Shown here: positions 56,111-59,620 of the stretch, in pieces
Layout of the letters: every line of letters begins with the position of its first letter
How positions within the stretch are numbered: position 1 is the first letter of the stretch
Sequence record: NZ_LR134454.1
DNA: 64,000 bases
Source of the DNA: a plasmid
Reading direction: 5' to 3' (one strand)
Program-made: the position numbers and the translations under genes
The notes under the pieces: generated by a model
Seen by the model: the letters and a program-made list of their open reading frames with translations, nothing else
The model's database searches: none
What the model was told of the DNA's origin: nothing

Positions 56111-59100
56111 GTGATCGATCGCCCTGATACCCCCCACGCCGACGTCCTCCTCGAAGGGATCTGGGAGGACGAGGTGACGCCCGACGACCTCGCGTCTCGG
56201 GCGCTGTCCGCCGCCCAGGCGTCGTCGTACGCCTTCCGCGTCGCCAGCGAGGGCACCACTGCGACCGCCCAGCTGGGCGAGGTCGACGTCGCCGAGTTCC
56301 TCGAGTCCGAGACGGGCAAGTGGGCGCAGAGCTTCATCGGCATCGTCCGCGTGGGCGAGTCGCTCGTCCACGTCTCGCACGCGCTCGGCGAGCTCGCCCG
56401 CAGTCTGCAGCAGGTGAACCTCGAGCAGTCGGAGATCGTCTACCAGGTGGAGGCCGAGATCGAGGCCGCGGAGCGGCAGTCCGCTCAGGCGGGCGTCGAC
56501 CCGGCGGACCGGATCGCCGAGCTGATCGCCGGAGCCCGGGCGCGCGCCGCCGAGGTGGCGGAGAAGATGGTGACGCCCGAGACCTCCAGTGAGACGAAGA
56601 AGCCCGCCGCGGGCCTGGTGAGCGGGTTCATGGCGTTCGGACGGGTGCCGGGCGCGAGCGCCGAGGCGACCGAGCGCAACGGTCGCGTCGCCCGGAACGG
56701 TCACGCCCGCAACGGTTACGCGATCCGCAACACCCGCGCTGAGCAGAACGGCCGCGGCGCCACGAACGGTCACGACGCGGTGAACGGCCGTGCGGCCACG
56801 AACGGTCACGAGGCCGCCACCGGGCAGGCCGCGAACGGCCACGACACCGTCGAACCGCCGGCGATCGCGGAGACGAACGCCGCCGCGGCGGCGCAGGACG
56901 CCTTCGCGAACTCCGCCGACGACACTGCGATGGACCCCGGGTTCATGGGCTTCGGCCGCACGCCGTCGACCCCTGTTCCCCGCACCGACGAGGTCGCGAC
57001 AGAGTCCGTCGTCGCGGACGAGGCCGTCACGGATTCCCCGATCGAGGACGCCGCGCCGGAGACCGTCGACGAGCCCGTCACGGACGACGCCGCCGTGGAC
57101 GACGCAGCCGCGGACGACGCAGCCGCGGAGGAGAACTCCGAAGCCGACGCGCCTGTGCTCAGGAACGGGTTCCTCGGCCTGGGGCCGGCCCCGTCGCTGG
57201 GCATGCCCGCCGACGATGTCGCGGTGCCCGCGCTGCCCCAGCCGCTGGTGAACGGCTTCATGGCGTTCGGTCGCACGCCGGGTGCGGACCAGCCCACGAT
57301 CCAGGGCCCCAGCAGCGGACCGATCCCGGTCGCCGCGCCCACGCAGTTCCTTCCGATCCCGACGACGCCCGCGGAGATCGTGGCCGGCGATCTCGGGGCG
57401 ACCGACGGCCTCGAACTCGGCTCGCCGATGACGTTGTCCGGATCCGCCGACGGCCCGTCGCCCGATCGCGCGCCGCACGGCCGGGCGGACGCGATGGATG
57501 ACGGATTCCTGTCGTTCGGGCGCGTCCCCACCGGCGGGGCGTGGGGTGGCTCGGGCGTCCTTCCGACGGTGCCCGCCACCGCCGGTGTGACTCCCGCTGG
57601 AGTCCACGACGCTGATGCTGACGAGCCCGCCGTCGAGGTCGACGACCTCGACGAAGTCCAGGACGTGGCGGAGGAGAGCGACGACGTGGTGGAGACGGAG
57701 GCACTCGACGACGCGGTGGAGGACACCAGGCCCGACGAGCCTGCGGACGACGCCCTGTCGGGCGACGCCGTCGACGACGAGGCCGTCGACGATGTCGCGG
57801 ACCTCGATGACGAGGCCATCGATGACGAGGCCATCGATGACGAGGCCATTGACGATGGTCCGGACGACGTCGATTTCGCCGACGAGCTGGATACCGAGGC
57901 GGACGAGCTCGGAGAGCCCGACGAGCCGGCGCACGACGAGCCCGACGAGGACGTGCTCGACGACGTTCTCGACGAGACGGAATCCGACCTCGATGACGCC
58001 GACGGAACCCCGTCCGAGGGCGACGCCGACGACGCCGCTGAAGACGTTGCGGCGGAGGCGGAGCCGGCCGATGGCTCGGAGGCCGAAGCTGACGACACCG
58101 GGATCGTCGATACATCTGAGTCCGAGCCCGAGCCCGAGCCCGAGCCAGACGGGGCGGAGGCGGACGAGGCGAGCGATGATCCCGAGGTCGAGGTCGACCC
58201 GACCGAGGACGCCACGGCCGAGATCGAGGAGTCCGCGGCCGATTCCGACGACGTCGAGGTTGCGGAGGCCGACGAACACACCGCCGACGAGCATGCCGAC
58301 GAACAGGTCCAGGAGACGGACGCGGTACCGGCCGACAGTGCGCTCGAGAAGGACGAGCAGTCCGAGACCACACCGGAGGCAACGGAATCCGGACAGCCGG
58401 AGCCGGCGGACGCACCCGCCGCGGCTCCCGCAGCCGGGGAGAACAAGACCGCGTTCGCCGCGCCGAAGCCGGTGCGCAAGTCCGGCCCGGTCAAGTTCTC
58501 CGACCTGCTCAAGGCTGCGAACGCCAACAAGGTGGACCCCGCGCACATCGCGCCGGCGGTGCTCGTGGCGTCGGCGGAGATGCCCGTCGCGACCCCGGAA
58601 CCCGACCCCGAGGCATCCGCAGCCGACGAGACAGGGCCTGCAGCAGCAGTATCCGACATCCCCGCGGACGCGGCGGAGCAGCCGGAGGCCCCTGCCAAGC
58701 AGGCCCCCGTGCTCGCCACGGGGCCCGCGATCCTGGGCCGCACGGAACCGCTGGTGCTGCGCAAGAAGGTATCGCCGGCCGTGCAGCAGGTGCACGACGC
58801 GGTCGCCTCGATCCTCGGATCCCTGCGCGGCGGCCCCCACGGGCCCGAGTCCGGGTTGCACTGGGCCGCTGGCCTGTTGGTGAAGGACTTGGAGACGATC
58901 ATGGCCGTCACCACGTCGGATGCCGGCTGGCTCCCGCCCGGCGTGGTGATCCCCGCCGGCGTGCGGGTGCTGTGGAACATGCCCACCGGCTACCGCTGGG
59001 CATCGGTCGACGACCCGGTGCGCCAGCTGATCGAGTACGCCGAGCAGGAGGGCTACACGCTCACCGCTGTCGCCACCACGCACCCGAGCCGCGCGTACGC

Positions 59101-59620
59101 CCCCGTCGTGGGGGAGGAGAACATCGTCGGCGTGCTCCGGCCCGGCGCGGTGCTCCCCGGCGGCCGCAGCCGATTCGAGGCGACGGTGTCTCCGGCGCGC
59201 CTGCAGCACATCCGGTCGCTCGACCGCGAGCAGGCCGAGCGGCAGGCGCGCGCCCTGATCCGGGACCTGGAGACGCAGCCGATCGCGCCCGAACACGCCA
59301 TCGGGATCGAGGCCGCGCGCATCGACGCACGGTGCTTCCTCGACGAGCGCGACGAGGTGCCGCCCCCGGTCCTCGACCAATTGCACACCGACGAGCGGGC
59401 CCTGGGGGATGCCCTGAGCCTGGACCGGACGCCGGCCTCGGCCGAGGACCTCACGGCGCCCGCACCGGACGCGGCCCGCTTGCGCGACCGGATGTTGGAG
59501 CGGGCGATCCTCGTCGCCACGCTCGCCGCGGCGTACCACGACATCGAGTCGGCGGTGTACGCCTGGACGTACGCTCGGTTCCTCTCGAGCCAGGATCAGG
59601 ACGCCCCGCAAGCACGATGA
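56111..59620 (+). CDS. Giant (1169 aa) polyacidic ESX-associated protein. It has an N-terminal approx. 110-aa domain, an approx. 650-aa D/E/A-rich disordered region with five GF(M/L)xFGRxP motifs, and a C-terminal approx. 330-aa globular domain that resembles EspK.
   Basis: GTG start with a GAGGTG RBS. Its stop overlaps the eccA start (ATGA). The opposite-strand ORF is an Arg/Gly-rich artefact. Confidence 0.65.
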   Translation: MIDRPDTPHADVLLEGIWEDEVTPDDLASRALSAAQASSYAFRVASEGTTATAQLGEVDVAEFLESETGKWAQSFIGIVRVGESLVHVSHALGELARSLQQVNLEQSEIVYQVEAEIEAAERQSAQAGVDPADRIAELIAGARARAAEVAEKMVTPETSSETKKPAAGLVSGFMAFGRVPGASAEATERNGRVARNGHARNGYAIRNTRAEQNGRGATNGHDAVNGRAATNGHEAATGQAANGHDTVEPPAIAETNAAAAAQDAFANSADDTAMDPGFMGFGRTPSTPVPRTDEVATESVVADEAVTDSPIEDAAPETVDEPVTDDAAVDDAAADDAAAEENSEADAPVLRNGFLGLGPAPSLGMPADDVAVPALPQPLVNGFMAFGRTPGADQPTIQGPSSGPIPVAAPTQFLPIPTTPAEIVAGDLGATDGLELGSPMTLSGSADGPSPDRAPHGRADAMDDGFLSFGRVPTGGAWGGSGVLPTVPATAGVTPAGVHDADADEPAVEVDDLDEVQDVAEESDDVVETEALDDAVEDTRPDEPADDALSGDAVDDEAVDDVADLDDEAIDDEAIDDEAIDDGPDDVDFADELDTEADELGEPDEPAHDEPDEDVLDDVLDETESDLDDADGTPSEGDADDAAEDVAAEAEPADGSEAEADDTGIVDTSESEPEPEPEPDGAEADEASDDPEVEVDPTEDATAEIEESAADSDDVEVAEADEHTADEHADEQVQETDAVPADSALEKDEQSETTPEATESGQPEPADAPAAAPAAGENKTAFAAPKPVRKSGPVKFSDLLKAANANKVDPAHIAPAVLVASAEMPVATPEPDPEASAADETGPAAAVSDIPADAAEQPEAPAKQAPVLATGPAILGRTEPLVLRKKVSPAVQQVHDAVASILGSLRGGPHGPESGLHWAAGLLVKDLETIMAVTTSDAGWLPPGVVIPAGVRVLWNMPTGYRWASVDDPVRQLIEYAEQEGYTLTAVATTHPSRAYAPVVGEENIVGVLRPGAVLPGGRSRFEATVSPARLQHIRSLDREQAERQARALIRDLETQPIAPEHAIGIEAARIDARCFLDERDEVPPPVLDQLHTDERALGDALSLDRTPASAEDLTAPAPDAARLRDRMLERAILVATLAAAYHDIESAVYAWTYARFLSSQDQDAPQAR
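57806..57850. repeat. Perfect tandem repeat, 3 × 15 bp (GATGACGAGGCCATC), encoding DEAID ×3 inside the acidic region
   Basis: Read directly from the sequence; only the last base of copy 3 differs. Confidence 0.6.

Follow-up and report, generated by a model that had tools for sequence, protein, structure and literature searches.

The stretch of DNA analysed here (the window; 64,000 nt of plasmid record NZ_LR134454.1) carries, directly upstream of eccA in an ESX locus of Tsukamurella tyrosinosolvens, a gene for a protein of 1169 amino acids (aa). The protein follows a family plan of three parts, i.e., a novel helical N-terminal domain (N-domain), a long low-complexity tether and a C-terminal domain (C-domain) of the EspK_C/Rv3899c type. 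By analogy with EspK, it would act as an EspK/Rv3899c-type tethered adaptor or chaperone of the ESX system, a reading held with slightly more confidence than doubt and best supported because the C-domain is homologous, the architecture is shared and the gene is linked to ESX genes. The open reading frame (ORF) itself is not new, as public genomes already annotate it as a hypothetical or DUF5632 protein. New are the EspK/Rv3899c-related tethered family outside Mycobacterium and its conserved place heading the Tsukamurella ESX operon, as well as a lineage-specific polyacidic expansion and a conserved array of short motifs, here called FGR motifs. The main features of the gene are the following.

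56111..59620, + strand: large ORF, 1169 aa, GTG start, TGA stop
56100-56105 and 56111-56113, + strand: ribosome-binding site GAGGTG and GTG start codon, read from the sequence, 5-nt spacer
56111..56605, + strand: N-terminal all-helical domain, aa 1-165, no described family
57566..58405, + strand: polyacidic tract, aa 486-765 (280 aa), containing DEAID, EP and other short tandem repeats
58760..59617, + strand: C-terminal domain, aa 884-1169, DUF5632/EspK_C/Rv3899c type, alpha/beta/alpha sandwich followed by a helix bundle
59617..59620, + strand: ATGA overlap of the TGA of the large ORF and the ATG of eccA, translational coupling

The large ORF is one real gene with a single reading frame. Since the window is ~72% G+C and opens long ORFs on both strands, the length of an ORF alone is no evidence of a gene. 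The G+C contents of the first, second and third codon positions (GC1/GC2/GC3) are 0.77/0.50/0.89 across the whole ORF, GC3 amounts to 0.80-0.98 in each block of 150 nt, and the coding-type GC frame shifts exactly at 59617, the start of eccA. The start VIDRPDTPHADV is also used in T. tyrosinosolvens strain assemblies, and the gene is base for base the same as a called gene of 1169 aa in T. tyrosinosolvens FNSA01000003.1. An original prediction, made from the letters of the window without database searches, had described the ORF of 1169 aa directly upstream of eccA and its ATGA overlap; both are read in the sequence, and the junction is kept in orthologs. The runs it named are all present (DEAIDDEAIDDEAIDD at aa 567-582, SEPEPEPEPD at aa 671-680 and IMAVTTSDAGWLPPGVVIPAGVRVLWNMP at aa 930-958), and the three-part layout it proposed is real and conserved among orthologs. 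However, the protein is not of megadalton scale, as was claimed, but has a computed mass of 121 kDa, with a pI of 4.05 and 251 acidic vs. 69 basic residues.

A scan with the N-domain of one genome per species yielded 11 loci, all in Tsukamurella. Nine of these contain an intact ORF of 1022-1241 aa, which is free of undetermined bases (Ns) and has the same C-terminus. The comparison of synteny that had been recommended supports the position of the gene, as the CGATGAC junction, with ATGA leading onto eccA, is kept in 9/9 intact orthologs. In two further T. tyrosinosolvens strains, the gene encodes 1164 and 1161 aa. The three strains differ by in-frame indels of 6, 15 and 30 nt, which are confined to the acidic repeats and change the copy number as follows.

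57803-57856 and 58118-58182 of the window: strain copy-number variation of DEAID and SEPEPE repeats, indels in frame

These data bear on an alternative that takes the long ORF for an artefact: the frame would be open by chance in GC-rich DNA, or two genes would be fused in it, and the true product would be a C-domain protein of ~300 aa. It could appeal to the databases, which hold versions of 303 and 408 aa and many relatives of 264-319 aa, and to the opposite strand, which is open over 1301 aa. With the C-terminal 300 aa as a query, the 303-aa protein was found in T. tyrosinosolvens CP119372.1 (99% identity) and the 408-aa entry in Tsukamurella sp. 1534 (76% identity). However, both are cut by runs of Ns. 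In CP119372.1, a run of 100 Ns (locus L001, 7754-7853) stands in for 3.87 kb of the window, and the 408-aa entry (HE997626.1; loci L006/L016) is broken by a gap of 324 Ns after a long (EA)n run, upstream of which the N-domain and the motifs recur. A short true protein of 303 aa was thus rejected, since the assembly gap lies exactly there, and the 408-aa entry likewise. The proteins of 264-319 aa were rejected as orthologs, since they are paralogs encoded at another locus, beside a DUF732 gene near tuf and fusA. The antisense ORF (55706-59611, - strand) covers the whole gene, but its third positions coincide with the first positions of the sense frame (GC 0.77), and it is therefore considered a shadow ORF of GC-rich DNA and no gene. 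Together with GC3, the frame kept across species at variable lengths and the indels only in multiples of three, these observations have already refuted the artefact, which retains next to no probability. They equally oppose an interrupted frame or a much shorter protein, which the original prediction had named as grounds for giving it up.

Other irregular records of the gene were encountered as well. The assembly gaps also shorten the neighbouring DUF7373 gene. In T. pseudospumae (LSRE01000013.1; L015, about 10400-10420), a frameshift near aa 137 puts the rest, including the FGR motifs, in another frame; either the sequence is in error there or the gene has recently become a pseudogene. A partial protein of 89 aa labelled 'Mycobacterium kansasii' (P0025) is 100% identical to aa 112-175, and the label suggests contamination. 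A 253-aa protein of the European Nucleotide Archive (P0021) is a chimera opening with the first 33 aa of the large protein. In practice, because public assemblies break in this gene at N gaps, or frameshift in it, the database entries of ~300-400 aa are to be read as truncations.

The C-domain carries the relationship to EspK. It was predicted to span ~330 aa; the domain is real, but its length is ~300 aa. Identity among species is 84-94%. The Pfam search that had been suggested for it gave a match to DUF5632 (PF18646; gathering cut-off 25 bits) of 26.4 bits with the C-domain scanned alone, and a weak precomputed match to EspK_C (PF27215) exists for the near-identical protein P0001; as the full-length protein scores just under the cut-off (see below), the C-domain is a borderline member of PF18646. 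In a phmmer search against all PDB sequences, only 5imu_A (residues 184-410 of Rv3899c) was found (E 0.005), aligned over the block WAAGL...T..GW(I/L)PP.V..PA.V. A profile of the Tsukamurella C-domains alone found nothing significant in the PDB, and distant homologs were needed to recover 5imu and EspK: when these were included, the top two among 177,635 PDB sequences were 5imu_A (E 9.3e-5) and 8ako_B, i.e., EspK (E 7.2e-3, 140 aligned residues). An AlphaFold2 (AF2) model of the C-domain, made with 15 homologs (predicted local distance difference test, pLDDT, 68), consists of alpha1-beta1-beta2-beta3-alpha-beta4 and seven subsequent helices, which equals the published topology of EspK 484-729. 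Its fold resembles that of 5IMU, the sole significant match when the model was compared with the PDB by Foldseek (E 1.1e-5). EspK_C and Rv3899c are homologs of the C-domain, which, judged from the sequence and Foldseek matches, is nearer to Rv3899c than to EspK. Thus, the likeness to EspK that the original prediction noted holds at the level of the fold group (DUF5632, 5imu, 8ako), but the closer relative is Rv3899c, and the N-domain has no detectable relation to EspK. The same three matches contradict a C-domain unlike any ESX-associated family, the other outcome that had been named as refuting.

The N-domain extends over ~165 aa and not over ~110 aa, as had been estimated, and is 93-99% identical among Tsukamurella species. 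Its family motif reads (R/K)PxTPHAxxIL...WED...PxDL, and the residues common across the family are (R/K)PxTPHAxxIL, WED, P24, W71, and V110 with E114. In a single-sequence AF2 model (pLDDT 65), helices span aa 24-46, 60-127 and 132-154. Searches of Pfam, NCBIfam and the PDB (by sequence profile) and with Foldseek gave nothing significant for the N-domain; the best Foldseek match of the model was PPE41, which is non-significant (E 2.8, probability 0.07). HMMER, run exhaustively over 1.84 billion representatives, returned only 13 matches, including the distant proteins P0026, P0027, P0029 and P0032, whilst a word-indexed search with the N-domain profile returned four trivial matches only. The check for an export signal of type VII secretion systems (T7SS) that had been proposed was negative. 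WxG is absent from aa 1-165, Y111 has a Glu at +3 and not at +4, and the N-domain lacks a canonical combination of WxG and YxxxD/E. The sole conserved YxxxE (aa 1142) lies inside the helix bundle of the C-domain and is not kept in paralogs, and Pfam gave no WXG100, PE or PPE match.

The four distant proteins, of 724-837 aa, match the N-domain with E 1e-25 to 5e-5 and 28-40% identity. All four consist of the same N-domain, a linker rich in Pro, Ala, Ser and Gly, which is not acidic, and the same C-domain; homologous N- and C-domains thus occur in the same order in one polypeptide, as befits a family. In the distant relatives, the equivalent loop of the N-domain has a WxG- or YxG-like turn (WCG, YGQG). 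P0032 is encoded upstream of eccA and eccB, P0027 and one copy on a Mycobacterium avium plasmid adjoin a Ser/Thr kinase, and P0029 adjoins a relaxase and a TraG/VirD4-type coupling protein. T. paurometabola has been listed with ESX-4EVOL and a cluster marked as ancestral region, and clusters of the ESX-4EVOL type have been derived from plasmid-borne ESX clusters (Newton-Foot et al., PMC4791881); the plasmid contexts of the distant relatives fit this derivation. To judge by a relaxase, a TraG/VirD4-type protein, ParA, insertion sequence elements and toxin-antitoxin pairs, several of the distant loci seem to be carried on plasmids. A gene of 169-211 aa precedes each distant homolog (L021, 9443-9964; L022, 9354-9917; L023, 11350-11985; L024, 3144-3653; L025, 3078-3659). 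The three products translated, those of L021, L022 and L023, are single-pass membrane proteins with a cysteine pair and weak similarity to one another. These upstream genes show no homology to the 100-aa gene that precedes the large gene in Tsukamurella (see below).

The stand-alone paralogs consist of the C-domain only. Those of ~290 aa in T. paurometabola and T. pulmonis (L002, 8001-8885; L004, 8001-8879) are encoded near the tuf/fusA ribosomal region. The N-termini of the paralogs (LVPIPFGR, LVPIPIGR) resemble both the segment that precedes the C-domain in the large protein and the FGR motif.

The two end domains are connected by a linker of ~700 aa, which is poorly conserved, rich in indels and compositionally biased. 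It had been described as a low-complexity region of ~650 aa dominated by Asp, Glu and Ala. A long linker is indeed present, but it is heterogeneous and truly polyacidic only at aa 486-765 and in a short second stretch at aa 291-352. The segment at aa 166-485 is rich in Gly, Ala and Pro and contains five copies of the motif GF(M/L)x(F/L)GR(T/V)P (aa 172, 277, 353, 382 and 465), the third of which is degenerate; NGFMAFGRTPGA is an example of an FGR peptide from the array. The stretch of aa 766-865 is rich in Ala and Pro. The features of the linker are as follows.

56624..56650, + strand: motif copy 1, GFMAFGRVP, aa 172-180, invariant in all orthologs
56672..56845, + strand: NG(R/H)-rich repeat segment, aa 188-245, first half conserved, second half variable
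56939..56965, + strand: motif copy 2, GFMGFGRTP, aa 277-285
57167..57193, + strand: degenerate motif copy 3, GFLGLGPAP, aa 353-361, GR in most other species
57254..57280, + strand: motif copy 4, GFMAFGRTP, aa 382-390
57314..57376, + strand: linker island SGPIPVAAPTQFLPIPTTPAE, aa 402-422, also in T. serpentis and Tsukamurella sp. 1534
57503..57529, + strand: motif copy 5, GFLSFGRVP, aa 465-473
58484..58516, + strand: conserved linker island GPVKFSDLLKA, aa 792-802, within the Ala/Pro-rich stretch
58706..58759, + strand: conserved segment PVLATGPAILGRTEPLVL, aa 866-883, directly before the C-domain, ILGRxxP core like the FGR motif

The Tsukamurella orthologs examined contain 2-5 copies of the motif, with 4-5 in most of the ten full-length sequences, three in L017 and P0023 and two in T. 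serpentis. The motifs are in register in all orthologs, whilst the spacers between the copies diverge, and a six-frame translation revealed no FGR motif elsewhere in the 64-kb window. Since they are under clear constraint, the motifs are probably binding sites for a partner. The AF2 model leaves the segment of aa 866-883 undocked (pLDDT <50); in the stand-alone paralogs (e.g., LVPIPFGR) and the distant homologs, too, a similar hydrophobic-Pro segment stands before the C-domain.

The polyacidic tract consists for 44% of Asp and Glu, contains two Lys/Arg residues and has a net charge of -120. Its column identity is 28-45%, with many indels, vs. 87-99% in the end domains, and its length among species is 120-361 aa. 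The tract is absent from the more distant relatives and from the T. serpentis ortholog, a protein of 792 aa with two FGR motifs and a Pro/Ala linker. In the Uversky charge-hydropathy test, performed because a disorder prediction had been proposed, the acidic tract was the only part placed clearly among disordered sequences; that the remaining linker is disordered as well may be deduced from its composition, indels and low conservation. Because T. serpentis and the relatives of 720-840 aa lack the tract, the ancestral form was an EspK-sized protein of about 750-850 aa, and the tract is a recent, repeat-driven, length-polymorphic and lineage-specific expansion. Most simply, it would be an extended polyelectrolyte spacer, free to vary in sequence and length. 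The acidic scaffold that the original prediction proposed as a dedicated function is not borne out, as the tract is lineage-specific and is dispensed with by T. serpentis and the distant relatives.

The genes flanking the large gene in the operon are the following.

55754..56056, + strand: conserved small gene, 100 aa, helix-loop-helix and Ser/Ala-rich tail, 55 nt upstream of the large gene
59617..61551, + strand: eccA, 644 aa, T7SS_EccA1_N (N-domain resembling tetratricopeptide repeats, TPR) and AAA+
about 61544, + strand: called start of eccB, 531 aa, overlapping the end of eccA by 8 nt (61544-61551)

The small gene has a GC3 of 0.94 in frame and is called as 100-102 aa in three T. tyrosinosolvens assemblies. 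It lies directly upstream of the large gene in 11/11 Tsukamurella loci (71-88% identity) and belongs to no family in Pfam or NCBIfam. The operon probably starts with this gene, whose product may be a partner of the N-domain. In L018, the first base of eccC is the last base of eccB. The genes from the small gene to eccC (small gene, large gene, eccA, eccB, eccC) appear to form a single operon with translational coupling. The locus consists, in this order, of the 100-aa gene, the large gene, eccA, eccB, a fused eccC (1406 aa), PE, PPE, two esx-like genes of 101 aa, espG and a gene for a 570-aa protein; with espG after the esx genes, it is arranged differently from M. tuberculosis ESX-1. In L018 (21213-21935), the first 240 aa of the 570-aa protein, encoded after espG, were read; they include a Pro/Ala/Gln-rich, probably disordered N-terminus and have no Pfam match. 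This protein may be EspI-like. One T. tyrosinosolvens strain, CP019066.1 (L020, 17778-18998), has a second gene for a DUF7373 lipoprotein between eccC and PE, and the gene at 54058-55272 (- strand) of the window, just upstream of the locus, also belongs to the DUF7373 family. Further upstream (49860-50657, - strand), the product of a single 265-aa gene has an N-terminus like the VbhA antitoxin together with a Fic domain.

How the C-domain would bind a substrate, what the N-domain would do and which partners the motifs would have can be inferred as follows. The ESX locus would yield one accessory protein of 121 kDa, made in the cytoplasm. Its C-domain would be a chaperone module that caps a PE/PPE-like or EspB-like substrate, encoded in the same locus, at its helical tip, and its N-domain would dock at the secretion machine or, alternatively, be the protein's own export module, whilst the tether would allow the ends to work far apart. 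In-frame repeat expansion in the T. tyrosinosolvens clade has lengthened the tether into a polyanionic, self-repelling and therefore extended spacer of 120-360 aa. The 4-5 GF(M/L)xFGR(T/V)P motifs would most likely be docking sites for a partner, which could be the TPR domain of the co-translated EccA or the C-domains of the large protein and of the 290-aa paralogs. Of these, the TPR domain would be the more attractive candidate because of the ATGA coupling to eccA, and the C-domains the second. A bolder version, in which the protein is a multivalent hub whose FGR motifs, with a polyanionic brush behind them, each dock one TPR arm of hexameric EccA, or one EspK_C-type domain (its own or that of the 290-aa paralogs), and thereby form a substrate-loading platform at the ESX machine, is unlikely. 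If true, it would represent the first defined short-linear-motif code for EccA.

Several results weigh against a tethered adaptor or chaperone. On the full-length protein, the DUF5632 score is 23.9 bits, just under the cut-off. The PDB search revealed no solved homolog of the N-domain, and the docking role proposed for this domain would rest purely on analogy. When an N-domain profile (A3) was compared by hhalign with a provisional EspK N-terminal sequence, not taken from a database record, the probability was 0.1% over 16 columns, and only the first 16 residues were aligned (TRPTGSYARQMLDPGGW vs. DRPDTPHADVLLE-GIW); given the provisional sequence, the two N-domains may be unrelated or too distant to call. 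Roughly 12 kb of the locus were read, and no EspB-like gene was seen there. Finally, of the distant loci examined, a single one has the gene next to eccA; the others are plasmid-like, by Ser/Thr kinase or conjugation genes. Part of this evidence also bears on a second possibility, i.e., that the protein is a true ortholog of ESX-1 EspK that has moved upstream of eccA. The same three-part layout and a C-domain related to EspK_C would be expected of such an ortholog, but the C-domain is nearer to Rv3899c (E 9e-5 vs. 7e-3), Foldseek found only 5imu, and the N-domain has no detectable relation to the provisional one of EspK. Moreover, the position of the gene and the order of the locus are unlike those of ESX-1, and no espB, espL or espJ neighbours were seen in the 12 kb read. 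A displaced ortholog is thus very improbable.

A possible but clearly less probable alternative to the adaptor is export of the protein itself, as an ESX substrate that ends up in the cell envelope, with the polyanionic tract working outside the cytoplasm, e.g., by binding cations or spanning the thick Tsukamurella envelope, and the C-domain acting at the surface. EspK, the closest characterised relative, was found in the cell wall, the capsule and the culture filtrate (PMC9811218), and the gene heads an ESX operon. The N-domain is helical and of ~165 aa, with PPE41 as its best structural match, and distant relatives have a WxG- or YxG-like turn at the equivalent loop. However, the match to PPE41 is not significant, and no signal peptide or transmembrane segment was seen in the translation. 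A canonical WxG or YxxxD/E is lacking in the Tsukamurella N-domain, although this lack neither proves nor excludes export, and the acidic tract that would bind cations or span the envelope is dispensable in T. serpentis and the distant relatives. Export and a role as adaptor are not mutually exclusive.

The tethered adaptor or chaperone remains the preferred reading, and it has consequences beyond this gene. The EspK_C/Rv3899c fold was suggested to be specific to Mycobacterium (PMC9811218), but it occurs outside this genus. It belongs to a wider, unnamed two-domain tethered family of ESX loci and conjugative plasmids of the Mycobacteriales. The linker of EspK has been described as a 'rope' (PMC9811218), and the natural variants reported here, without the tract in T. 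serpentis and with 120-360 aa of it elsewhere, can be used for testing the rope model of EspK-type adaptors. The motif array, upstream of and coupled to eccA, offers a concrete, testable candidate for what EccA binds.

Among characterised proteins, EspK (Rv3879c; PDB 8AKO, chain B) shares the C-domain of the EspK_C type and the long low-complexity linker with the large protein. However, EspK measures 729 aa vs. 1169 aa, and its gene lies beside espL and espB vs. upstream of eccA. The EspK linker is Pro-rich, whereas that of Tsukamurella is rich in Asp and Glu, with repeated FGR motifs. Thus, of the features of EspK, the long, probably unstructured linker and the EspK_C C-domain are found, but an N-domain with WxG and a position beside espL and espB are not; the protein also differs from a canonical T7SS substrate, i.e., a helix-turn-helix with WxG and YxxxD/E. 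In the published work, EspK binds the tip of EspB via its C-terminal domain, its N-domain was proposed to contact EccCb1, and the grip on the helical client tip was likened to that of EspG on PE/PPE pairs (PMC9811218). With EspG itself, the analogy is functional only, as the fold is unrelated and a separate espG is present in this locus. Rv3899c (PDB 5IMU, residues 184-410) adjoins ESX-2 and was listed together with Rv0029 and Rv2082 (PMC9811218); at 410 aa, it has no long linker and is compared on the C-domain only. In contrast, the whole plan recurs in the unnamed family of 720-840 aa from mycobacterial plasmids and metagenomes (e.g., the M. avium plasmids NZ_AP020327.1 and NZ_CP085281.1), with an N-domain of 25-40% identity and a homologous C-domain; the linkers of this family are not acidic and have no FGR motif array, unlike the Tsukamurella form, in which both have been placed between the same two ends.

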